Assembly: GCA_030647415.1 (NCBI GenBank)
Contig: JAUSKB010000026.1
Coordinates: 74,894 to 138,893 of the forward strand
DNA: 64,000 nucleotides
Direction: 5' to 3'
Origin: a bacterium
Lineage (GTDB): Bacteria > Patescibacteriota > Minisyncoccia > UBA6257 > GWB1-50-10
The notes below the pieces were generated by a model. It was not told the DNA's origin. It made no database searches and saw only the letters and a list, made by a program, of their open reading frames with translations. The translations under genes and the position numbers were made by a program. Shown here piece after piece: positions 3,418-56,893 of this stretch. Numbering within the stretch: position 1 is the stretch's first letter; each line of letters opens with the position of its first letter.

Positions 3418-3491
3418 TGGTCGGCCCGGCAGGAATCGGACCTACGTTCAATGTGTATAAGACATTTGCTCTACCATTGAGCTACGGGCCG
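3418..3491 (-). tRNA. tRNA-Ile (anticodon UAU), hand-folded
   Basis: Revcomp CGGCCCG TA GCTC AATGGTA GAGC A AATGT CTTATAC ACATT ... CGGGCCG A CCA: 7-bp acceptor, canonical D arm, 5-bp anticodon stem, loop CU-UAU-AC, CCA encoded. T-arm slightly atypical. Confidence 0.55.
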
Positions 3492-6369: not shown

Positions 6370-6852
6370 ATGCTGCCGAAATTCAAAAGTTCGCTCGGCC
6401 TCGACCTCGGCATCCCCGAAGTGGTCCGAGAGATTCTGACCTTCATGCGCGCCGACGCGCGCCGACGGTACACCGTCATCATCGGAAGCGATTCTCTCCT
6501 CCTCCCCTCGAAAAACGCTGACTTCGTGACTGCCATCGTGGTCCACCGCGTGGGGAACGGCGGCCGGTACTTCTGGCGCCGCACAGACCACGGGAAGTTT
6601 CACACGCTCCGCGACCGCATCATCCGCGAGGTGCTCCTGTCGCTCGAGGCGGCAGACCTCCTCCTGAAAGAGTTGCGCGATCAGGCGGGAGACATCGAGT
6701 GGAGCTTCGAAATCCACGCGGACGTGGGCGAGAATGGTCCTACAAAGGCGCTCATCCAGGAGGTGGTGGGCATGATCCGCGCCTCTAACTTCGAAGCAAG
6801 GACAAAGCCGCAGAGCTACGCGGCGTCAAAGGTGGCGGACCGGCACGTATAG
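6370..6852 (+). CDS. DUF458/YkuK-like predicted RNase H-like protein
   Basis: 160 aa; RRYTVIIGSDS...FVTAIVVHRVGNGGRYF resembles the YkuK family; 12-bp gap after the EEP gene suggests an operon. Confidence 0.45.
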   Translation: MLPKFKSSLGLDLGIPEVVREILTFMRADARRRYTVIIGSDSLLLPSKNADFVTAIVVHRVGNGGRYFWRRTDHGKFHTLRDRIIREVLLSLEAADLLLKELRDQAGDIEWSFEIHADVGENGPTKALIQEVVGMIRASNFEARTKPQSYAASKVADRHV

Positions 6853-6894
6853 TAATCGCGAATAATGCGAATCGGGGGAGGTAATAATGCGAAT
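6851..6894. repeat. Family B terminal repeat, left arm (AGTAATCGCGAATAATGCGAAT + GGTAATAATGCGAAT)
   Basis: Inverted partner at 7320-7362; contains GGAGG and the ATG of the GxxExxY gene. Confidence 0.85.
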
Positions 6895-7303
6895 GGGGAA
6901 CGAACCCGATACGAGTAGCGGAAACAAAGAGCTGATACTCCCGGAATTGAGCTACGCTATCATCGGCGCAGCGTTCACCGTATTCAACCATCTCGGTTGG
7001 GGATTTTCCGAGAAAGACTACGGAAATGCGCTTGCAATAGAGCTTCAAAAACAAACTATTAACTTCAAGCGAGAGGTGTATGTCCCGTTACGGTATGGAC
7101 CGGAAAATGTCGGCAGGTATTTTGCCGATTTCATCATCGAGGGAAAAATATTGGTTGAGTTGAAAGTTGTCCACAAATTAGGGTACACTCATGCGAAGCA
7201 GGTGCTAGGGTACCTCCGATCTGGGGGGTTCCGGCTCGGTCTGCTCATCTATTTTACGAACGGCGGGGTGAAATATCGCCGCATTCTGAACAGCGGCGTA
7301 TAA
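6887..7303 (+). CDS. GxxExxY protein (PD-(D/E)XK nuclease superfamily; 23S rRNA intervening-sequence-type protein)
   Basis: 138 aa; ELSYAIIGAAFTVFNHLGWGFSEKDYGNALAIEL is the family signature (GxxExxY); the alternative start at 6893 lies inside the repeat. Confidence 0.8.
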   Translation: MRMGNEPDTSSGNKELILPELSYAIIGAAFTVFNHLGWGFSEKDYGNALAIELQKQTINFKREVYVPLRYGPENVGRYFADFIIEGKILVELKVVHKLGYTHAKQVLGYLRSGGFRLGLLIYFTNGGVKYRRILNSGV

Positions 7304-7319
7304 TGTTCGCTTCGTAACT

Positions 7320-7362
7320 ATTCGCATTATTACGCATCAATTCGCATTATTCGCGATTACTC
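7320..7362. repeat. Family B terminal repeat, right arm (ATTCGCATTATTAC + ATTCGCATTATTCGCGATTACT), inverted relative to 6851-6894
   Basis: Reverse complement of the left arm units; the next gene's ATG at 7364 follows immediately. Confidence 0.85.
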
Positions 7363-7363
7363 C

Positions 7364-7939
7364 ATGGCACACGACAAAATCGTATTCGACATAGAAACCA
7401 AGAACACCTTCGAGGATGTGGGTGGGCAGGCGAACATCACGAAGCTCGAGGCCTCCGTCATTGGCGTCTACTCCTACAACCGGGACCAGTACCGCGCCTT
7501 CGAGGAGCGAGAGTTTCCAGAGCTCGGCGAGTGGCTCCAGCAGGCGCACCTGCTCGTCGGCTTCTACAGCAAGAAGTTCGATGTGCCGGTCATGGAGAAG
7601 TATTTCTCCTTCAAGCTCGCCGCCATCCGGCACTTCGATATGCTGGAGGAAATCGAGAAGCGGCTCGGGCGCCGCATCGGCCTCGGCGTCCTCGCGGAGG
7701 CGAACCTCGGGGAGGGGAAGAGTGGCCACGGCCTCGAGGCAATCGACCTCTGGCGAAACGGCGAACTTGAGAAGCTCAAATCTTACTGCCTCCAGGATGT
7801 GAAAATCACAAGGGACCTCTACGAACGCATCCTCACGCAGAAATACCTCTGGATACCCGAGCGGAACGTGCCGCAGATGACGAAACTCGACTTCTCGGAC
7901 TATACTGAATCGAAGGCGCCACAGGCCGCCCTGCTATGA
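7364..7939 (+). CDS. DEDDy-type 3'-5' exonuclease (DnaQ-like fold)
   Basis: 191 aa; Exo I FDIET, Exo III YCLQDVKITRDLY; flanked on both sides by family B repeats. Confidence 0.65.
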   Translation: MAHDKIVFDIETKNTFEDVGGQANITKLEASVIGVYSYNRDQYRAFEEREFPELGEWLQQAHLLVGFYSKKFDVPVMEKYFSFKLAAIRHFDMLEEIEKRLGRRIGLGVLAEANLGEGKSGHGLEAIDLWRNGELEKLKSYCLQDVKITRDLYERILTQKYLWIPERNVPQMTKLDFSDYTESKAPQAALL

Positions 7940-8092
7940 GTAATCGCCAATAATGCGAATAGCACTCGGTAATAATGCGAATGAAAGGAGTAATCGCGAA
8001 TAATGCGAATGGCAGAGGTAATAATGCGAATGAAATGCGCATGTATTCGCATTATTACTGAATTTTAATTAGCATTATTAGCGACTACTCCA
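7939..8092. repeat. Family B repeat cluster without cargo (two forward 22+14 units, then reversed units), an 'empty' TIR pair
   Basis: AGTAATCGCCAATAATGCGAAT, GGTAATAATGCGAAT, AGTAATCGCGAATAATGCGAAT, GGTAATAATGCGAAT, then ATTCGCATTATTAC and ATTAGCATTATTAGCGACTACTCC abutting the ATG at 8092. Confidence 0.8.
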
Positions 8093-8346
8093 TGATGAAG
8101 ATTTTGAAAAATGAAAAATTGGCCCGCTGGGTCATCGGCATCGTGGTCGTGGGCCTCGTCATGGCCTACGTGCCGCTTCTTTTTGTTCCGCAACCGGCAC
8201 AGGCACCGGAACCAACGCCGCAACCCGCTCCGGACCAGTATCTACCCCAACAGCCGATCGAATTGCCTGCAGTGACGCCGCCCGAAATCGTAACCTCGAC
8301 CGTCGGCGTCTCGGTCACCAGCACCGCGACCGGAACGACGCAGTAG
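8092..8346 (+). CDS. small membrane-anchored Pro-rich hypothetical protein
   Basis: 84 aa; one TM helix, then a PEPTPQPAP-type low-complexity region. Confidence 0.35.
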   Translation: MMKILKNEKLARWVIGIVVVGLVMAYVPLLFVPQPAQAPEPTPQPAPDQYLPQQPIELPAVTPPEIVTSTVGVSVTSTATGTTQ

Positions 8347-8477: not shown

Positions 8478-8508
8478 ATTGACATTTATGCATAATTAGT
8501 GTTATCAT
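8478..8508 (+). promoter_or_regulatory. conserved promoter-like sequence ATTGACATTTATGCATAATTAGTGTTATCAT (TTGACA ... TGCATAAT / TATCAT)
   Basis: Near-identical copy (30 of 33 positions) at 20614-20644; both head low-GC islets. Confidence 0.5.
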
Positions 8509-8590: not shown

Positions 8591-9205
8591 GTGTCAAAAT
8601 TCCAAATTCTGCGACCCGTGATCGTGGTAGTGGTCGCAATATGCTCATACCAAATCCTGGATTCGGTATGGGGCAACGACGACGCTTCTCTGTTTGGCGC
8701 AATGTTTTTCTGTGTTCTCGCGGTCGCCTTCTTATTCCCCTTCGGGGGAAATGTGGCACTGTATGACCTCCTCATGAAAAAGCAGCGGGCGATCAAAAGG
8801 ATCGCTACGCTCATTGTAAATGAGTGCGCGTACGGTCCGGGCGGCGTCAAAATAGATCCTGAATTATTCGAAATGTCCTTGAGGGAAAAGTCGAAACGCG
8901 AGGAGATGCAGGCGCTTCTCGATTCTCTCGTCGCCGAAAAAGCGCGGGAGGCGGCGGATGCGTTCATTGAGCAGAAGGGCGCCCAAACCGCACTGCAAAA
9001 TATGCGCCGCGACCTGAAAAACAGAATCGGATGGGGCTCGAAGACTCGGAATCAAATCGACACAGAGCTCGAAGTTGTCCAGAGAGCAGATGAAAAAGCG
9101 ACGGTAGCGAAAGTATGGTTTAATCGACGCCGAGATGTCGTTCGCGACGCGGGATTCGAGGTGTGGGACGATTTTGAGTGTTATCTAGCACTTAAAATCA
9201 ACTGA
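8591..9205 (+). CDS. hypothetical membrane protein (low-GC islet); GTG start
   Basis: 204 aa; SD AAAGGAG 6 nt upstream; N-terminal hydrophobic segments. Confidence 0.5.
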   Translation: MSKFQILRPVIVVVVAICSYQILDSVWGNDDASLFGAMFFCVLAVAFLFPFGGNVALYDLLMKKQRAIKRIATLIVNECAYGPGGVKIDPELFEMSLREKSKREEMQALLDSLVAEKAREAADAFIEQKGAQTALQNMRRDLKNRIGWGSKTRNQIDTELEVVQRADEKATVAKVWFNRRRDVVRDAGFEVWDDFECYLALKIN

Positions 9206-10926: not shown

Positions 10927-10940
10927 AAAAACCCAAAAAA

Positions 10941-10980
10941 TTCTCATTCTAACCCCGCCATGGCGGGGTTAGAATGAGAA
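10941..10980. terminator. perfect 19-bp-stem hairpin TTCTCATTCTAACCCCGCC-AT-GGCGGGGTTAGAATGAGAA
   Basis: Perfect palindrome directly after the glyA stop codon. Confidence 0.6.
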
Positions 10981-11027
10981 TTTTCCGCGCCTGTACACAG
11001 CGCGCCGGTCCGAATACCATTACCATC

Positions 11028-18215: not shown

Positions 18216-18316
18216 CCTGTTAGAAGTTTACATACACATAGGACTGGTTGTAGGCGTGTCGGTGCCAGCACTTCCCTGTGGATATCACAAGTGTGTGTGG
18301 GTAAACTTCTAACAGG
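18216..18316. repeat. Family A palindromic element, copy A3
   Basis: CCTGTTAGAAGTTTACATACACAT ... GTGTGTGGGTAAACTTCTAACAGG. Confidence 0.8.
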
Positions 18317-20407: not shown

Positions 20408-20420
20408 GAAAAAGATTCAC

Positions 20421-20523
20421 CCTGTTAGAAGTTTACAGACACTCATTGAGTGTGTAGTGTAGCGTGTTATCTAAAACAACATGTGTAACATGAACACAGC
20501 GTGCGCGTAAACTTCTAACAGGG
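20421..20523. repeat. Family A palindromic element, copy A4, with conserved outer flanks TAAGAAAAAGATTCACCCTG... and ...CAGGGTGAAAGAAAAAGGAGGG
   Basis: The same outer flanks occur at copy A6. Confidence 0.85.
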
Positions 20524-20613
20524 TGAAAGAAAAAGGAGGGGAGGAGGGTTTAAAAAATGAGATATAAATGATGGAGATACTAGAAACCAGCATATATGCT
20601 GGTGTTTTTTACT

Positions 20614-27876: not shown

Positions 27877-27918
27877 GTAACAAACAACCTACGACACACA
27901 ACTAACAACCTATTTATC

Positions 27919-28019
27919 CTGTTAGAAGTTTACAAATAATCATTTTCCTATGAATTTGATGGTTATATTCAAAACCAAAACTATGCAGGAATACAAATTT
28001 TGCGTAAACTTCTAACAGG
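27919..28019. repeat. Family A palindromic element, copy A5; the right end CTAACAGG is immediately followed by the ATG at 28020
   Basis: CCTGTTAGAAGTTTACAAATAAT ... TTGCGTAAACTTCTAACAGG-ATGAACCTC. Confidence 0.85.
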
Positions 28020-29324
28020 ATGAACCTCACAAAGAAACAGCTCATCATCCTCGGCGGTATCGTCCTTGTAGTCATCATTCTGGTGCTCATGGGGCTCGGT
28101 ATCATCCCGGGACTGAAGACTGGCCCGGTCACCATGAAACCGGTTTCGCTCACCGTATGGGGCGTAGAGGACGCCGTACAGGAGCTGCAACCCGCGGTGC
28201 AATCGTTCGCCAGGAACCACCCCGGTGCCACCGTCACCTACTGGCAGTTTACCGACACCGAGACGTACCACACCACCCTCCTCGAGGCGCTCGCCGCGGG
28301 CACGGGACCGGATATCTTCGCCATACGGAACACCGAGGTGATGCGCCATGCCTCGAAGCTCGTCGCAATGCCGAAAGAGCGGCTCTCGCTCCTCACTCTC
28401 CGAAACACGTTCGCCCCCGTGGTGGAGCGTGATTTTGTGGTAAACGGCGGGGTCGTTGCGCTGCCGCTTTCCATAGACACGCTCTCACTCATCTATAATC
28501 GGGACCACTTCAACGAGGCGGGCATCGTTTCTGCTCCCGCCACCTGGGACGACCTCGTCGCCATTGCGCCGCGGCTTTCGGTCGTTGACGACTCGCGCCG
28601 GGTCACTCGCGCTTCCATAGCGCTTGGCGGTTCGGGTAGTACCATACCGCGCGTCAGCGACATTATTTCGGCATTGATGCTTCAGGGTGGCATCGTACCC
28701 GTCGGGCCCGACTGGGGCGGCGCCGGTTTCGCAACCCGCGCAGGATATGACGCGGTGAACTTCTACCTGCAGTTTTCGAACACCGGAAGCCCGCTCTACA
28801 CCTGGAATGAGGGGATGCCGAATGCTGTGGATGCGTTCGCACAAGGACGGGTCGCTATGATTATCGACTACGCCCGCGCACTGCCGGACATCCGGGAGCG
28901 AAACCCGCTCATGAACTTCGCCGTCGCACCACTCCCCCAGCAGAAGGGGGCGGAGCGGTCAAAGACCATGGCCTCCTACTGGGGCTATACGGTTTCCCGC
29001 CAATCGAAGCAGGCCCGGCTCGCGTGGGACTTCATCGTGGAAACAGCAACGAACCCGCAGGTGGTCAGTGCATACTTGAATGCTTCAAAACGCCCGCCGG
29101 CGATACCGAAATTCATCGAAGCGTACCGCGACAATCCCAACCTCGCCGTATTCGCCCAGCAAACGCTCACCGCCGATTCCTGGCCGATGCCGAACCGGGA
29201 CCTGGTAGGGGGCATATTCTCCGACATGGTGACGACGGTGCTTGAGAATCGGGCGAGCGTCGAAACGGCCGTAGGCCGCGCGCAGAGCGATATTTCGCGA
29301 CTCATCGGGTCGCGGCCGCGGTAA
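28020..29324 (+). CDS. extracellular solute-binding protein (ABC transporter, family 1), membrane-anchored
   Basis: 434 aa; N-terminal TM anchor, SBP_bac_1-like fold; starts MNL, identical first 9 nt to the gene at 54068. Confidence 0.65.
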   Translation: MNLTKKQLIILGGIVLVVIILVLMGLGIIPGLKTGPVTMKPVSLTVWGVEDAVQELQPAVQSFARNHPGATVTYWQFTDTETYHTTLLEALAAGTGPDIFAIRNTEVMRHASKLVAMPKERLSLLTLRNTFAPVVERDFVVNGGVVALPLSIDTLSLIYNRDHFNEAGIVSAPATWDDLVAIAPRLSVVDDSRRVTRASIALGGSGSTIPRVSDIISALMLQGGIVPVGPDWGGAGFATRAGYDAVNFYLQFSNTGSPLYTWNEGMPNAVDAFAQGRVAMIIDYARALPDIRERNPLMNFAVAPLPQQKGAERSKTMASYWGYTVSRQSKQARLAWDFIVETATNPQVVSAYLNASKRPPAIPKFIEAYRDNPNLAVFAQQTLTADSWPMPNRDLVGGIFSDMVTTVLENRASVETAVGRAQSDISRLIGSRPR

Positions 29325-32141: not shown

Positions 32142-32154
32142 GAAAAAGGATTTA

Positions 32155-32255
32155 CCCTGTTAGAGTTTTACAAACACTTTAGTTATATGCATTTGGTTGG
32201 TACCGCATACCACCGGTATCAAGCATAGTAGTGTGCGTGTAAAACTCTAACAGGG
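32155..32255. repeat. Family A palindromic element, copy A6
   Basis: TAAGAAAAAGGATTTACCCTGTTAGAGTTTTACAAACAC ... GTGTGCGTGTAAAACTCTAACAGGGTAAAAGAAAAAGGAGGG. Confidence 0.85.
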
Positions 32256-32277
32256 TAAAAGAAAAAGGAGGGATTTA

Positions 32278-32379
32278 CCCTGTTAGAAATTTACATACAC
32301 CCATACCACATGATGTCGTCTGTCTCCTGAAACTGCACCGTATTCATGAATACGGTGTGCGTGTAAATTTCTAATAGGG
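32278..32379. repeat. Family A palindromic element, copy A7 (tandem with A6)
   Basis: CCCTGTTAGAAATTTACATACAC ... GTGTGCGTGTAAATTTCTAATAGGG. Confidence 0.85.
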
Positions 32380-41282: not shown

Positions 41283-41295
41283 GCAATGGTGTATA

Positions 41296-41506
41296 CCCTG
41301 TTAGAGTTTTACAAATACACCTGTACAAGCTGAATTATTTGTCACCTCATACCAAGCTGTGCACAACCCAACGGCGTGCCCCGTGAGAGATTTACGCGCA
41401 AACTACTTGCTGGGAAATGGTTTTGTTATAATCAGTAAGTGAAATTCGATACTAGGAAATGGTCTGTAAATCTCTAACGGGGCGTGCAAGTAAAACTCTA
41501 ACAGGG
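41296..41506. repeat. Family A palindromic element, copy A9 (outer, 211 bp), carrying a nested copy
   Basis: Left CCCTGTTAGAGTTTTACAAATACAC at 41296; right GCAAGTAAAACTCTAACAGGGT at 41487-41506. Confidence 0.75.
41389..41482. repeat. Family A variant copy A10, nested inside A9
   Basis: CCCCGTGAGAGATTTACG ... TGTAAATCTCTAACGGGG. Confidence 0.7.
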
Positions 41507-41519
41507 TAAACTTAAGTAT

Positions 41520-44906: not shown

Positions 44907-45623
44907 TTACTTTTTACCTTTTACTACCGCAATCGGCTTCGCGCCGGGGAGCATCAACAACCCGGAACCTTCCATGAGAATCTCCTGGTAGCGCGGATTG
45001 AATTGCCGAATCGTCTCGGGGTCGATGCCGTACCGCGCGGCGATAGTTGTGAGTGAATCGCCAGCTATGACCGCGTAGCGCACGCCGGAAACCGGCAGTA
45101 TGGTAAGTTCAGCGCCGGGACGGATCGTGCGCCCCACGGACAGGTTCGCCCACCGGATCGTCTCCGGCGTTATGCCGAACCGGGCGGCGAGCGCGGCGAG
45201 CGTGTCACCTCGCTGTACACGGTACCGGATGGTCCCGTCCGCTACGGGAATGGTTACGGTAAACGGCATCGCGGCTGCAGTAAGGTCGCTCTCCGTCACC
45301 GTCCCCAGGTCGGGGACAGCGCCTGCCTGTCCGGCCCGCCCAGATGACTCGGTCGGACGGGTAGGCAGCGCTGACAATCCCACCGCACCCGCCCGGATGA
45401 CTCGGTCGGACGGGTCATCGAACGGATTTATCTCGCCTGTCTGCGCAGGCGGGTTTGGAAGTGTTGTTATATCTGAAAATACACCCTCCCCGTCCGACCG
45501 AGTCATCCGGGCGGGCACGCCGTCGTTTTTGGACTCATCCACATAGCTGCTCACAATCTTGTCTGCGGAGACCCCAGAAGCGCCAATAAGGCCTGTAATT
45601 CCCAGGAGAATGAGCGACCACAT
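44907..45623 (-). CDS. LysM-domain protein (two LysM repeats); linker region carries three copies of the 28-bp dispersed repeat
   Basis: YRVQRGDTLAALAARFGI and YAVIAGDSLTTIAARYGI; N-terminal TM anchor. Confidence 0.8.
   Translation of the reverse strand: MWSLILLGITGLIGASGVSADKIVSSYVDESKNDGVPARMTRSDGEGVFSDITTLPNPPAQTGEINPFDDPSDRVIRAGAVGLSALPTRPTESSGRAGQAGAVPDLGTVTESDLTAAAMPFTVTIPVADGTIRYRVQRGDTLAALAARFGITPETIRWANLSVGRTIRPGAELTILPVSGVRYAVIAGDSLTTIAARYGIDPETIRQFNPRYQEILMEGSGLLMLPGAKPIAVVKGKK
45336..45363. repeat. 28-bp dispersed repeat GCCCGCCC(A/G)GATGACTCGGTCGGACGGG, copy 1 (inside the LysM gene)
   Basis: Further copies at 45389-45416 (same orientation), 45490-45518 (inverted), 47774-47801 and 54641-54672 (variant). 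Confidence 0.85.
45389..45416. repeat. 28-bp dispersed repeat, copy 2 (inside the LysM gene)
   Basis: Exact core match. Confidence 0.85.
45490..45518. repeat. 28-bp dispersed repeat, copy 3, inverted (inside the LysM gene)
   Basis: CCCCGTCCGACCGAGTCATCCGGGCGGGC. Confidence 0.85.
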
Positions 45624-45770: not shown

Positions 45771-45895
45771 TACACAAATGTCTAACAGGGTACACCCTGT
45801 TAGAGTTTTGCACATACTCCGTTATATTCCATATGGATGTTTCAGAAAGACCAATTTCTTCTAGTAAAAAGATGATCTGCAAAACTCTAACAGGG
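45771..45895. repeat. Family A palindromic element, copy A11, plus an extra solo right-half immediately upstream
   Basis: CACAAATGTCTAACAGGGT-ACACCCTGTTAGAGTTTTGCACA ... TGCAAAACTCTAACAGGGTAA-ATG (ksgA start). Confidence 0.8.
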
Positions 45896-45898
45896 TAA

Positions 45899-48128: not shown

Positions 48129-48170
48129 AAGACTTGTCATTCTGGACGGCCGTCCAGAATGACAAGTCTT
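48129..48170. repeat. perfect 42-bp palindrome without spacer (AAGACTTGTCATTCTGGACGG|CCGTCCAGAATGACAAGTCTT)
   Basis: 21-bp arms, exact reverse complements; within an AT-rich noncoding stretch (about 47990-48350). Confidence 0.85.
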
Positions 48171-53883: not shown

Positions 53884-53967
53884 TCTAATCTCAACAAGCA
53901 GAGGCAAGCTGAGGCCGAGCGGCAGCGGAAAGCCGGTGGAGCAACACCAAATCCATAACCCATTTAT

Positions 53968-54067
53968 CCTGTTAGAAGTTTACAGATAGTTATTTATATG
54001 GAAAATATTATTGTTATGCAAAATAAAATTGTGAAGTGGCGGTGTTTGCGCGTAAACTTCTAACAGG
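53968..54067. repeat. Family A palindromic element, copy A12; the right end is followed directly by the ATG at 54068
   Basis: CCTGTTAGAAGTTTACAGATAG ... TTGCGCGTAAACTTCTAACAGG-ATGAACCTC. Confidence 0.85.
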
Positions 54068-55072
54068 ATGAACCTCTCGAATATAACTTTTGAGCTGCTC
54101 TCCGAACGGTACGAGGAGATACCGGAACGGTTTCGGGAGCTCCTCGAGTCACCCGGCACAAAAACAACACTCGTGCGCATCGGGGCGCAACACGCGCTTG
54201 ACCACGAACGGCAAACACTCCTTGAGGCGCTGGTCGGTCTTGTCTTCACCGGTTTCCTCTCCCCGGATGACCTCGCGGGGGAGTTTGTCGACCGCCTCTT
54301 CCTGAACTTCGTCCACGCCCGCGCGCTCGCCCGCGAGGTGGACGAGACCTTCTTCGCGCCGCACCGCCGCGACCTCGTTCGCGTCTACAACCCCGTGGGC
54401 GGGGTACCGCAGGGCCCAACCGTCCGGAGTGCGGAACGACCTATGATTGGATTGCCTTCACAAGTAGGAAAGACGATTTCACTTGAATCCATCGGCGCTT
54501 CAGGCGGTAGGGAACAAAAGCTTCCCATTAACGAGGTTGCGGCGCCGCTCGTGATTCTCGGCTCCAGCTCCCCCACCCTCCGCAAACCGATTATTCCGAA
54601 CCGCCCGCCGGAACGCCTGTTTGCCAGCCAGGCAGGCCTGCCTACCCATCCGACCGAGTTATCCGGGCGAGCCGGACAAACGGTTTCGGAGAAGCCGGTG
54701 TACCACTCACCCTTTTCCTTCCGGTTCCCGTTCCGCTCACCGCAGGCGGCGCGTACCCCGCTGGGCGACTCCACGGGACCGACCGCGACCGTCCGATTGC
54801 CCGGCAGTGCGGCACCAGCGCAGAAGAAGGATGGGCTTCATATTGTCCACTATGCGGAAACACGCGGGAGACTCGGCCCGCCGCTATCAACCGGAAAGGG
54901 GGGGGTAGTGAACCTGGACCAGCTGGGGGCGCAGCAAAGAAAAGAGACAAGAGAAAAAGGACAAGAGACGCCCATCGCACCGACAACCGACAACCGACAA
55001 CCGACAACCATCCCGAAACCACAGCCGAAGATCGATGGGAACACCATAGACCTCCGGGCAAATAAACTCTAA
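54068..55072 (+). CDS. hypothetical Pro-rich protein containing an in-frame variant of the 28-bp repeat
   Basis: 334 aa; starts MNL, identical 5' end to the 28020 gene; PTHPTELSGRAGQT is encoded by the repeat at 54641-54672. Confidence 0.5.
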   Translation: MNLSNITFELLSERYEEIPERFRELLESPGTKTTLVRIGAQHALDHERQTLLEALVGLVFTGFLSPDDLAGEFVDRLFLNFVHARALAREVDETFFAPHRRDLVRVYNPVGGVPQGPTVRSAERPMIGLPSQVGKTISLESIGASGGREQKLPINEVAAPLVILGSSSPTLRKPIIPNRPPERLFASQAGLPTHPTELSGRAGQTVSEKPVYHSPFSFRFPFRSPQAARTPLGDSTGPTATVRLPGSAAPAQKKDGLHIVHYAETRGRLGPPLSTGKGGVVNLDQLGAQQRKETREKGQETPIAPTTDNRQPTTIPKPQPKIDGNTIDLRANKL

Positions 55073-55125
55073 ATCCGAAACTCTAAATCCTAAACAAGCA
55101 CGAAATTCTAAACTCTAAACCACTG
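55066..55125. repeat. Family C repeat (CTCTAAATCCGAAAC(C/T)CTAAATCCTAAACAA...), forward arm C1
   Basis: Inverted partner at 55516-55580; together they bracket the four-helix-bundle gene. Confidence 0.8.
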
Positions 55126-55129
55126 CATT

Positions 55130-55495
55130 ATGGAACCGAGCGTGGGCTTGAAACGGTATGATTTGGAGGCGCGAACGCTTCAATTTACAAGGGATGTCAT
55201 TTCGTTCGTTTCCGCCCTTCCCCGGAGTATTGCCAATATTGAAATCATCAAACAGCTCATCCGGGCGACTGGTTCGGTGGGAGCGAATTATATAGAAGCG
55301 AATGAGTCCGTAAGCAGAAAGGACTTTCTCTTACGAGTTAAGATTTCCAAAAAAGAGTCGCGAGAGGCAATATACTGGTTGGAGCTCGTACAATGCTCAA
55401 ATGAGCAATGTGAAGTTAGGAGGCGTGAATTGATCCGAGAAGCGACCGAGCTCATGAAAATTCTCGGTTCAATCGTCGAAAAATCATCTCGGTGA
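55130..55495 (+). CDS. four-helix-bundle protein (TIGR02436 / 23S rRNA intervening-sequence protein; Avd-like)
   Basis: 121 aa; RATGSVGANYIEANESVSRKDFLLRVKISKKESREAIYWLEL matches the family core; lower GC than neighbours. Confidence 0.7.
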   Translation: MEPSVGLKRYDLEARTLQFTRDVISFVSALPRSIANIEIIKQLIRATGSVGANYIEANESVSRKDFLLRVKISKKESREAIYWLELVQCSNEQCEVRRRELIREATELMKILGSIVEKSSR

Positions 55496-55515
55496 TATTG
55501 CATTCATGATTTTTC

Positions 55516-55580
55516 CCTGTTTCGGATTTGAGATTTGGAATTTGTTTAGGGTTTAGGGTTTCGAATTTAGAATTTATCTG
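55516..55580. repeat. Family C repeat, reverse arm C2 (GTTTAGGGTTTAGGGTTTCGAATTTAGAATTT)
   Basis: Reverse complement of the C1 motifs. Confidence 0.8.
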
Positions 55581-55581
55581 T

Positions 55582-56079
55582 ATGAATTTTCAGGTCCCCC
55601 AATTCATCTCGGAAAAGGCCCACATCATCGGGCCGCTCACCTTCGCCCAGCTCGGCTACCTCATGGGCGCGGGCTTTATCGCGTTCCTTTTCTTCTCATT
55701 TTTCACGCCGTTCGTCGCGGGCTCGTTTTCTGCGGTGTTTGTCGGGGTCGCGCTCGCGCTCGCGCTCGGAAAGTTCAATGGGGTGAGTATTGCATCCATC
55801 CTTGTCGGCGCGGTCGGGTACCTCTGGAAGCCACGGGTGTACACCTGGCAACGGACATTTGCCACACAGACCTTTGACGCCTCAAGCGTAGATAAAATAG
55901 AGGCGATGCGGCGGAAGATGGGCGTCGAGGAAAAACTCAAGGCGATTGCGCTTTCGGTCACCACCGGAAAGATCTTCGCGCCAAAGGCGCCGGAGGTCGC
56001 CGCTGATGCCCAGCGATTCCAAATGGTGAGCTACCTGACCGGTGAAAAGAAGCTCGCGAAGAGAATCGACTACAGGTAG
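55582..56079 (+). CDS. small membrane protein, possibly VirB3-like (by position upstream of virB4)
   Basis: 166 aa from the internal ATG; 2-3 TM helices; matches the VirB3-VirB4 gene order. Confidence 0.3.
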   Translation: MNFQVPQFISEKAHIIGPLTFAQLGYLMGAGFIAFLFFSFFTPFVAGSFSAVFVGVALALALGKFNGVSIASILVGAVGYLWKPRVYTWQRTFATQTFDASSVDKIEAMRRKMGVEEKLKAIALSVTTGKIFAPKAPEVAADAQRFQMVSYLTGEKKLAKRIDYR

Positions 56080-56089
56080 AATAAGGTAA

Positions 56090-56228
56090 GCTCTAAATCC
56101 GAAACCCTAAATCCTAAACAAATTCGAAATTCCAAACACACTCATAAATGATGATGAAACATGATGCCATTTCGAATTTCGTGCTTGGAATTTGTTTAGA
56201 GTTTCGATATTAGGATTTAGAATTTCTA
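56090..56228. repeat. Family C palindromic element C3 (forward and reverse arms, no cargo)
   Basis: GCTCTAAATCCGAAACCCTAAATCCTAAACAAATTCGAAATTCCAA ... TTGGAATTTGTTTAGAGTTTCGATATTAGGATTTAGAATTTC. Confidence 0.8.
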
Positions 56229-56893
56229 TGGAAAAGGGTCTCCCCACACAATCATTTGTCGCCGTCAAAGAGGTTCGAAACGGCATCGTCCACCTGAAAG
56301 ACGGCGGCCTGCGCCAGCTCCTCATCGTCTCCGGCGTGAACTTCGACCTGAAGGCGGAGGAGGAGCAGGCACTTATTCTGAACACCTTCCAAAATTTCCT
56401 GAACACGCTCGACTTCACGATGCAGTGCTTCATCCATTCCCGGAAGGTGAATGTGGACACCTACCTGGACCGCATGCGCTCGCGGCAGCTCGAGGAACCG
56501 AATGAGCTCTTGAAGATCCAGATTGCCGAGTATATCGACTTCATCGCCGCGTTCGTGGACCAGAACGCCATCATATCAAAAACCTTCTTTGTGGTGGTCC
56601 CGTACGATCCGCCAGTGACGTCCGGAGCGGCGACCAAGGGCGTGCTTGGCTTCTTCAAGAAACGCGAGGCGGCGACGGTCATCGCGGACGAGGCGGCAAC
56701 GCTCCAGGAGCACTTGAAGCAGCTCGAACAGCGGGTGACACAGGCGACCGAGGGCCTCCTCCAGATCGGGCTACGGGCAGTCCGGCTCCGCGACGACGAG
56801 ACCATCGAGTTGTTCTACAACCTCTACAATCCGGAACTGGTCGAGAAGAAGGGGCTCGACATAGCAAAGCCAGACAAAGCCGGAAAATCCTAA
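56228..56893 (+). CDS. virB4: VirB4/ConE-family ATPase, N-terminal fragment (split gene)
   Basis: 222 aa; IVHLKDGGLRQLLIVSGVNFDLKAEEEQALILNTFQNFLNTLDFTMQ fits the CagE/TrbE/VirB4 N-terminal domain pattern; 222+587 aa equals a normal VirB4 length. Confidence 0.5.
   Translation: MEKGLPTQSFVAVKEVRNGIVHLKDGGLRQLLIVSGVNFDLKAEEEQALILNTFQNFLNTLDFTMQCFIHSRKVNVDTYLDRMRSRQLEEPNELLKIQIAEYIDFIAAFVDQNAIISKTFFVVVPYDPPVTSGAATKGVLGFFKKREAATVIADEAATLQEHLKQLEQRVTQATEGLLQIGLRAVRLRDDETIELFYNLYNPELVEKKGLDIAKPDKAGKS

Follow-up and report, generated by a model that had tools for sequence, protein, structure and literature searches.

A GxxExxY nuclease gene in a palindromic intercistronic cassette and its gene-less relatives in Patescibacteria

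The 64,000-nucleotide stretch analyzed here (positions 74,894 to 138,893 of contig JAUSKB010000026.1, from a member of the Patescibacteriota; hereafter the window) carries between 6851 and 8091 a small gene for a GxxExxY-type PD-(D/E)XK nuclease enclosed by compound inverted repeats, and a neighboring block of the same repeats without a gene (table 1). An outer arm (L, L') and an inner arm (S, S') lie on either side of the nuclease gene, with noncomplementary spacers between them (8 nt, cgggggag, vs. 6 nt, gcatca). The outer left arm begins within the TAG stop codon (6850-6852) of an upstream RNaseH_like gene, and the outer right arm stops immediately before the ATG at 7364 of an exonuclease gene. 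The second block, at 7939-8091, comprises six repeat pieces: L, S, L and S in forward orientation, then S' and L' in reverse. The copy of L at 7987-8010 is complementary to the outer right arm of the cassette at 24/24 positions, and the complete gene-less unit which this copy opens runs up to the ATG (8092) of an 84-aa membrane protein gene. Thus, L opens in an upstream stop codon at two sites (TAG 6850, TGA 7937) and L' closes as ..ACTCC right before an ATG at two sites (7364, 8092). The repeats are far too frequent for chance: allowing one mismatch, the 12-mer AATAATGCGAAT has 10 matches in the 64-kb window, all within 6861-8079, against 0.18 expected, and the 22-mer L (up to three mismatches) has five against 0. 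The solo left half at the start of the second block appears to be the remnant of a second tandem gene-less unit. Overall, the locus is one long and one and a half short members of a family of palindromic insertion elements of Patescibacteria.

Table 1. Features of the GxxExxY locus and of related palindromic loci in the window.
Feature	Sequence	Position	Strand	Remarks
Outer left arm L	AGTAATCGCGAATAATGCGAAT	6851-6872	+	exact reverse complement of 7340-7361, 22/22
Left spacer, 8 nt	cgggggag	6873-6880	+	contains GGGGGAGG, the Shine-Dalgarno sequence of the cargo gene; unpaired in the predicted fold
Inner left arm S	GTAATAATGCGAAT	6881-6894	+	cargo ATG 6887 and alternative ATG 6893 inside
Cargo gene, 138-aa GxxExxY / PD-(D/E)XK nuclease		6887-7303	+	PF13366 PDDEXK_3, TIGR04256
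Inner right arm S'	ATTCGCATTATTAC	7320-7333	-	exact complement of S, 14/14
Outer right arm L'	ATTCGCATTATTCGCGATTACTCC	7340-7363	-	complement of L at 7340-7361; extends to ..CTCC at 7363
Solo left half		7939-7982	+	L 7939-7960 (1 mismatch), S 7969-7982; starts inside exonuclease TGA 7937-7939
Complete gene-less palindromic unit		7987-8091	+	L 7987-8010, S 8018-8031, 13-nt loop, S' 8045-8058, L' 8068-8091 (3 mismatches)
RNaseH_like host gene (PF04308)		6370-6852	+	upstream of cassette
DnaQ/RNase_H_2-type 3'-5' exonuclease host gene		7364-7939	+	RNase_H_2 and 3'-5' exonuclease family matches; flanked by the two repeat blocks; outside the element
84-aa membrane protein host gene (tm84)		8092-8346	+	downstream of second repeat block
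Second cassette of the window		PF05635 gene 55130-55495; arms 55059-55120 / 55519-55580		gene E 2e-13; arms 62 nt, 76% complementary
PrgI-like host gene		55564-56079		after second cassette
Empty arm pair		56084-56136 / 56170-56230		after PrgI-like gene
CCTGTTAGARNTTTAC family sites		818-1056, 18216-18316, 20416-20527, 27913-28024, 32151-32379, 41291-41511, 45794-45896, 53963-54072

The assignment of the cargo protein is clear, with matches to PF13366 PDDEXK_3 (E 4.6e-33, 114.5 bits, cut-off 22) and TIGR04256 GxxExxY (E 7.6e-33, 113.3 bits, cut-off 35). NCBI begins the gene at the second ATG (6893), for a length of 136 aa. The eponymous motif reads G39-F-S-E42-K-D-Y45 and the catalytic residues are D81, E91 and K93; since E42, D81, E91 and K93 are, together with G27, G37 and F123, invariant across 43 homologs, the PD-(D/E)XK site is intact. 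The gene is also compositionally distinct, at 43-50% GC versus 60-65% in the flanks. An AlphaFold model (mean predicted local distance difference test score 90) shows the PD-(D/E)XK fold, and a fold search with it returned generic PD-(D/E)XK matches only (Cas4 SSO0001 and lambda exonuclease, TM ~0.5), including a weak match to I-Bth0305I and nothing diagnostic of substrate. A sequence search of the PDB with the protein found no solved relative. In Pfam and NCBIfam it matches PDDEXK_3 / GxxExxY only, and no REP-associated tyrosine transposase (RAYT; Y1/HUH); hence the long form, which shares its arms with the gene-less units, encodes a PD-(D/E)XK nuclease and not a recognized transposase. PF13366 is given as of function unknown in the literature, where our searches found no function for GxxExxY proteins either.

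Comparison with relatives provides the evidence for insertion. A metagenome scan with the exonuclease protein recovered 25 related loci. In L093-L100 and L102 (56-68% protein identity), the RNaseH_like and exonuclease genes are separated by a gap of 8-48 nt without the 12-mer, and in L098 and L099 only 12 nt separate the exonuclease and membrane protein genes. Because they are absent at the same junctions in relatives of the window, both the cassette and the gene-less units are dispensable. The comparison shows the repeat units to be insertions into gaps of a few nucleotides between co-directional genes. The RNaseH_like/exonuclease junction is moreover an insertion hotspot, occupied in L109 (3590-4001), L112 (1264-1683), L104 (1587-1913) and L113 (1857-1990); the inserts of L104 (325 nt) and L113 (132 nt) are unrelated ORF-less palindromes.

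The cassette is also present in L092 (95% identity), with arms 100% identical to those of the window. The two cargo genes differ at 8/379 aligned positions and by a 30-nt in-frame deletion. The cassette as a whole is significantly less diverged (8/483 nt) than its flanks (88/1056; p = 4e-8), the flanking genes being 7-10% diverged. The deletion, near position 1101 of L092 (window 7258-7287), takes out the conserved ..GVKYRRIL.. strand of the GxxExxY protein, and may represent a first step of cargo decay. In the gene-less block (block C), the outer arms of the two sequences are identical and the inner ~60 nt differ. The simplest account would be an ancestor with two tandem gene-less units, trimmed by separate deletions.

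The same gene-arm combination recurs in other genomes. GxxExxY genes of 57-68% identity lie inside the same arms in L012, L018, L019, L050, L060 and L064, and L073 retains a decayed cargo remnant (aa 92-138 only). Homologs in arm variants occur inside conserved operons, between pilB and pilC in Jorgensenbacteria (L117) and Colwellbacteria (L140), between dnaK and dnaJ (L121), between prfB and ftsE (L123), and in a pilB-to-pilT cluster (L119). A distant homolog (L139, 36-38% identity) has quite different arms, made of GGCACAGAT repeats, which again hold its start codon. Arm divergence thus tracks protein divergence (L123, L121, L119, L139). In all, the gene sits inside arms in 13/13 loci, often with its start codon within the inner repeat, and is co-directional with the host genes in every one of them (p = 2e-4). 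Gene-less units, in turn, are found with either internal orientation (25 vs. 13; 7 ambiguous). A Wolfebacteria-specific variant of the terminus, AGTGATC, is common to a genome's cargo copy and its empty units. These patterns show that the cassette is inherited as a unit and that the association of cargo and arms is fixed.

To delimit the family, we searched a species-representative genome collection with the pattern AATAATGCGAAT-N5-15-AATAATGCGAAT. This returned 90 stretches, nearly all in about 42 Patescibacteria assemblies, comprising Wolfe-, Lipton-, Colwell- and Harrisonbacteria, Paceibacterota and metagenome-assembled genomes labeled Saccharibacteria. Five matches in other genomes (Bacteroidaceae, Eggerthella, Clostridium, Lachnospiraceae) and L083 were set aside as chance or tandem repeats, as were 14 matches in viral contigs, none with the L terminus, which are tandem low-complexity repeats in giant-virus bins. 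The commonest layout is a gene-less palindrome, L-S-loop-S'-L', of 82-138 nt (mostly 85-115), with 51 clean cases; half units (L-S or S'-L' alone) are also found. Counted in 8-kb stretches around the repeat matches, a genome holds up to ten or more such units, and copies within one genome have a common loop sequence, so they must have multiplied as such and are not independent footprints. Their placement is strikingly constrained. The end nearest the ATG reads ...CGCGA[A/T]YACT-N2-6-ATG, the other end lies 0-3 nt after a stop codon or itself provides the TAA, and 38 of 61 units are abutted at both ends (within ~10 nt) by same-direction ORFs of at least 50 codons.

These results bear on the original prediction, made from the window alone, of a selfish GxxExxY cassette bounded by terminal inverted repeats (TIRs) with an adjacent gene-less derivative. 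That the repeats bracket the gene at 6887-7303 and carry its Shine-Dalgarno sequence and start codon was confirmed by direct reading and by repeat search. The cassette itself is borne out by the absence of the insert at the same junctions in relatives, its presence in L092 and its recurrence in 13 loci, and the derivative, likened to a MITE (transposable element of the miniature inverted-repeat type), by similar units in about 42 Patescibacteria genomes. The checks proposed with it also gave positive answers: the repeats exist in other Patescibacteria genomes, mostly gene-less; relatives show presence/absence polymorphism; and the arms of the transcript fold into a stem of 22 bp plus ~15 bp around the ORF. 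The suggestion that the gene-less block might be an excision footprint, in contrast, is unsupported, given that gene-less units have conserved loops of their own and are amplified within genomes.

Ribosomal-protein genes are not spared. In two Wolfebacteria, the S10/spc ribosomal-protein operon contains seven units, before the genes for L3, L4, L2, L22, L14 and L18 and after that for L16 (L003 3701-7019 / L072; L010 850-4425 / L070). At the S19/L22 junction and at that before L14, the identical stop-to-start gap of a sister genome is taken up by palindromes of another family, with AATAAC/GTTATA repeats. Elsewhere, a unit (L051 1292-1378) stops 3-4 nt before the 5' end of a 16S gene, and two others (L062 2821-2928, L079 7496-7546) stop 5-8 nt before tRNAs. 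The 16S gene of L051 contains an additional ~730 nt between model positions 1 and 561. No unit was seen inside any rRNA gene, and the one 23S gene examined (L026) is uninterrupted. Between two Wolfebacteria of 4.5-5% coding divergence, four orthologous units differ at 1/420 positions and a fifth at 7/105, compared with 397/8173 in the coding flanks. This indicates constraint or gene conversion on single copies, together with turnover of occupants at permissive junctions.

What is conserved in the arms? Each of the two arms of a unit holds two AATAAYGCNAAT 12-mers ~20 nt apart and a terminal (R)GAGTAATCGCG. Among 51 oriented unique units, positions 6 and 9 of the 12-mer and positions 4, 5, 8 and 10 of the terminus vary independently between arms, the rest being near-invariant. 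Mismatches between arms comprise 71 A.C and 31 G.U on the sense strand and 140 others. A conserved RNA stem was considered as the reason for arm conservation and ruled out by this covariation test, which found no compensatory changes. Since the arms are conserved by motif and not by pairing, an RNase III stem alone is insufficient to explain the repeats. The AATAAYGCNAAT motifs, four per unit and in direct copies about two helical turns apart, look like putative protein recognition sites. Nevertheless, a fold of the RNA at 6840-7375 pairs L with L' (22 bp) and S with S' (~15 bp) around the ORF, with the Shine-Dalgarno spacer in an internal loop (minimum free energy -195.6 kcal/mol, z -6.6), and the gene-less unit also folds (z -4.9). 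The two ends of the units are not equivalent: GAA[Y/A]ACT is the start-side terminus of 34/51 units but the stop-side terminus of 2/51, regardless of internal orientation (p = 8e-12), and it makes the stem weaker at its base next to the start codon. A promoter and terminator scan found nothing promoter-like or terminator-like in the repeats, and Rfam annotated two tRNAs only in the window, with no RNA family at the repeats and no rRNA. Other identities were considered and rejected: a mini-ORF in the empty units (inconsistent frames and stops, and an ATG lost in AATAACGC variants), integron attC sites (the arms are inverted and flank the ORF on both sides, and the neighbors are nucleases and a membrane protein) and, on architecture, CRISPR/TIGR-like arrays.

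A further clue comes from a different cargo. At the same RNaseH_like/exonuclease junction, L109 and L112 carry an insert of ~410 nt that encodes a 23S_rRNA_IVP protein (PF05635, E 1e-34) and is bounded by a different inverted repeat of GTGTCAGGTATCAAG units; in L109 the exonuclease gene shares its first codons with the right arm. The window itself contains a second cassette with a PF05635 gene, and this locus (55059-56230) has the layout of the GxxExxY locus. In L117 (3174-3381+), a called gene of 504 aa matches PF05635, N_methyl and Laminin_G_3, and is probably an IVP cassette fused by the gene caller to a downstream pilin-like gene. PF05635 is the family borne by the intervening sequence (IVS) of the Coxiella 23S rRNA gene, a selfish element of 428 nt with inverted repeats that pair into a 28-bp stem, which RNase III cuts (PMC4990558). 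A kinship with such modules, as originally proposed, is thus upheld by the PF05635 genes at the same junction and elsewhere in the window. The accompanying statement that GxxExxY proteins are known 23S IVS cargo could not be confirmed; a survey of rRNA insertions across the Candidate Phyla Radiation (CPR) lists 22 23S_rRNA_IVP ORFs and no PDDEXK_3.

We put forward, with a probability of about 0.55, that the element is a selfish, operon-hitchhiking hairpin cassette with derivatives akin to MITEs and to REPINs (hairpin-forming doublets of repetitive extragenic palindromes), for which we infer mobilization by the nuclease and processing by RNase III. The cassette would have no promoter of its own and be expressed by read-through from the host operon, a reading prompted by the co-directionality of the cargo in 13/13 loci, the use of both orientations by the empty units and the lack of promoter- or terminator-like sites in the repeats. 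In the transcript, the arms would pair into a stem of at least 22 bp and so keep the flanking cistrons functionally adjacent; by analogy with the 23S IVS, this stem is a likely RNase III substrate from which the cargo mRNA would be cut out. The four 12-mers might serve as binding sites of the element's own nuclease, which would mobilize the long form and also act in trans on deletion derivatives of it, in parallel with a RAYT gene and its REPINs or an autonomous element and its MITEs.

Several observations weigh against this proposal. A comparison of the flanks of 47 units with the junctions left uninterrupted in relatives gave no consistent target-site duplication, and the window holds only one locus of the AATAATGCGAAT arm family. 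Without compensatory covariation in the arms of the 51 units, RNA pairing is not demonstrably selected. The better conservation of orthologous gene-less copies than of their coding flanks hints at a host-level function or gene conversion instead of pure parasitism. To our knowledge, no stand-alone PD-(D/E)XK nuclease of ~130 aa is a transposase. Finally, the PF05635 cassettes have the same layout and gene-less pairs of their own, and their cargo, a four-helix bundle and not an enzyme, argues that the cargo protein need not be the mobilizing activity.

In an alternative scenario, which we consider rather unlikely, the short palindromes are primary, moved by another agent or exapted by the host, and the GxxExxY gene, in common with the PF05635 gene, invaded their loops secondarily as a selfish gene that homes into empty units by means of its nuclease. 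The gene does fill the loop exactly, from inner arm to inner arm, and a genome usually has a single cargo copy and many empties, although efficient homing would predict several filled units per genome. A recent conversion would also leave a cassette less diverged than its flanks, as between the window and L092, where in addition block C differs in its loops. The layout common to the PF05635 cassettes fits equally, as does the existence of PD-(D/E)XK homing endonucleases, among them I-Bth0305I, to which the model has its weak fold match. However, an invader should mix with different arms, and this GxxExxY clade is found with this arm family only (13/13), other clades having other arms. Moreover, the start codon and Shine-Dalgarno sequence are built into the repeat, and L073 decays from filled towards empty.

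A benefit to the host has to be weighed as well. The units could be exapted intercistronic RNA elements, acting as processing or stability hairpins, or as a stem that brings the upstream stop codon and the purine-rich left end beside the downstream start for re-initiation, with the cargo incidental. Their reach from stop to start codon, their tolerance at seven ribosomal-protein operon junctions, their ends 3-8 nt before tRNAs and a 16S 5' end, and the start-side GAA[Y/A]ACT bias (34/51 vs. 2/51 in any internal orientation) all fit such a role, even if tiny intergenic gaps alone would put any tolerated insertion beside a stop and a start. Orthologous copies are likewise better conserved than coding flanks, and two junctions remain occupied in sister genomes by a different palindrome family; yet the same junctions are empty in relatives of the window, making the units dispensable, and the multiple unrelated families and their turnover look parasitic. 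Given also the lack of compensatory covariation and the use of both internal orientations, we regard this explanation as unlikely. Very improbable, in our judgement, is that the right arm is an outward promoter or operator, in which a TTCGCA of the inner copy acts as a -35-like and a CATTAT of the outer copy, at a distance of 17-19 nt, as a -10-like element. The distance between the 12-mers, the conservation of motif type and the lone right halves situated shortly before start codons, tRNAs and a 16S gene are in its favor, and so is the start-side-specific A, 7 nt past CATTAT, by which the GAA[Y/A]ACT change (T to A) coincides with the predicted transcription start. The hexamers nonetheless match the consensus at only 8/12 positions and are uncalled by a scan that does call TTGACA-18-TATCAT at 8479-8508; antisense transcription into the upstream gene would also be expected of a symmetric unit; lone left halves also sit between stop and start codons; and it would be unusual for one ribosomal-protein operon to have seven internal promoters.

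Extending the hairpin-cassette reading, we offer tentatively, and as possible more than probable, that PF05635 ORFs and GxxExxY genes are both cargo of one general class of hairpin-bounded, transcript-hitchhiking cassettes. Such cassettes might settle in any transcribed gap (rRNA helices, tRNA/16S leaders, and intercistronic gaps including those of ribosomal-protein operons), with lineage-specific arms of short motifs bound by their own protein. GxxExxY would then be a sequence-specific element nuclease of a new kind that keeps a REPIN-like population in ultra-small CPR genomes.

The palindromic element family is previously undescribed, and literature searches returned no description of these elements. 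The cassettes suggest a concrete genomic role for two very large families of unknown function, GxxExxY/PDDEXK_3 and 23S_rRNA_IVP, point to IVS-like modules that are not limited to rRNA, and provide a candidate nuclease with a defined putative recognition motif of ~12 bp. Palindromic insertions are repeatedly tolerated even by the most streamlined bacterial genomes, in ribosomal-protein, dnaK-dnaJ, pilB-pilC and prfB-ftsE operons, which raises the question of how Patescibacteria express genes across 100-nt hairpins, whether through processing by RNase III or through re-initiation. In CPR genomes, the elements also serve as strain-level markers and give rise to errors in gene calling.

Other palindromes exist in the window. 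A third and more abundant family, with the core CCTGTTAGARNTTTAC, has 22 matches against 0 expected, mostly as inverted pairs with arms 50-70 nt apart; the pairs at 20416 and 32151 have AAGAAAAAG(G) on both sides, beside GGAGG. Perfect palindromes of 24+24 nt lie at 10937-10984, right after a glyA-like gene, and at 48129-48170, and a GC-rich inverted-repeat cluster (27 nt, 100% complementary) at 45334-45516. The canonical sigma-70-like promoter at 8479-8508, which has a TG, is found upstream of the gene at 8591 (204 aa) and is also conserved in L092, so standard promoters exist in this genome. ARAGORN places a tRNA-Ile with anticodon TAT (UAU) at 3418-3491; tRNA-Ile(UAU) is uncommon in bacteria, where AUA is usually read by a lysidine-modified CAU tRNA.

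Among known systems, the ORF-bearing 23S IVSs of Coxiella and Leptospira (PF05635 / S23p) are similar in being selfish inserts of ~0.4-0.5 kb whose TIRs form a long stem (28 bp in Coxiella vs. 22 + ~15 bp here) around a small ORF that lacks its own promoter and is transcribed, presumably so here, from the host gene (PMC4990558), and PF05635 cassettes occur at the very same junction in L109/L112 and elsewhere in the window. In contrast, the present element lies between protein-coding cistrons or just upstream of tRNA/16S genes and not in an rRNA helix, its cargo is a PD-(D/E)XK protein (PF13366) and not PF05635, and its arms consist of repeated 12-mers kept as sequence, with a large ORF-less population. 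REPIN-RAYT systems also combine a usually single gene between inverted repeat copies with dozens of gene-less hairpin doublets in the intergenic DNA of the same genome, and their orthologous copies are likewise unusually well conserved. The protein here, however, is a PD-(D/E)XK nuclease of putative catalysis and not an HUH/Y1 transposase, and the units are AT-rich, 85-115 nt long, built of 2+2 motifs and set within operons from stop to start instead of after 3' ends.

Like MITEs, the 51 units of 82-138 nt are short, gene-less, TIR-bounded and multi-copy. In particular, Correia elements/NEMIS (Neisseria miniature insertion sequences) and ERIC (enterobacterial repetitive intergenic consensus) elements are small TIR elements that are co-transcribed with their neighbors, form long RNA hairpins, show insertion polymorphism between strains and can affect downstream expression; Correia/NEMIS hairpins are RNase III targets in Neisseria. 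The family described here differs in sequence and phylum and in its cargo-bearing long form, and neither a TA duplication nor an integration host factor site was seen. Lastly, free-standing or intron-borne homing endonuclease genes resemble the cassette as small nuclease genes present or absent at a fixed site and less diverged than their flanks; here, by contrast, there is no intron or intein, the bounds are inverted repeats, and the occupation of non-homologous sites needs more than homing.

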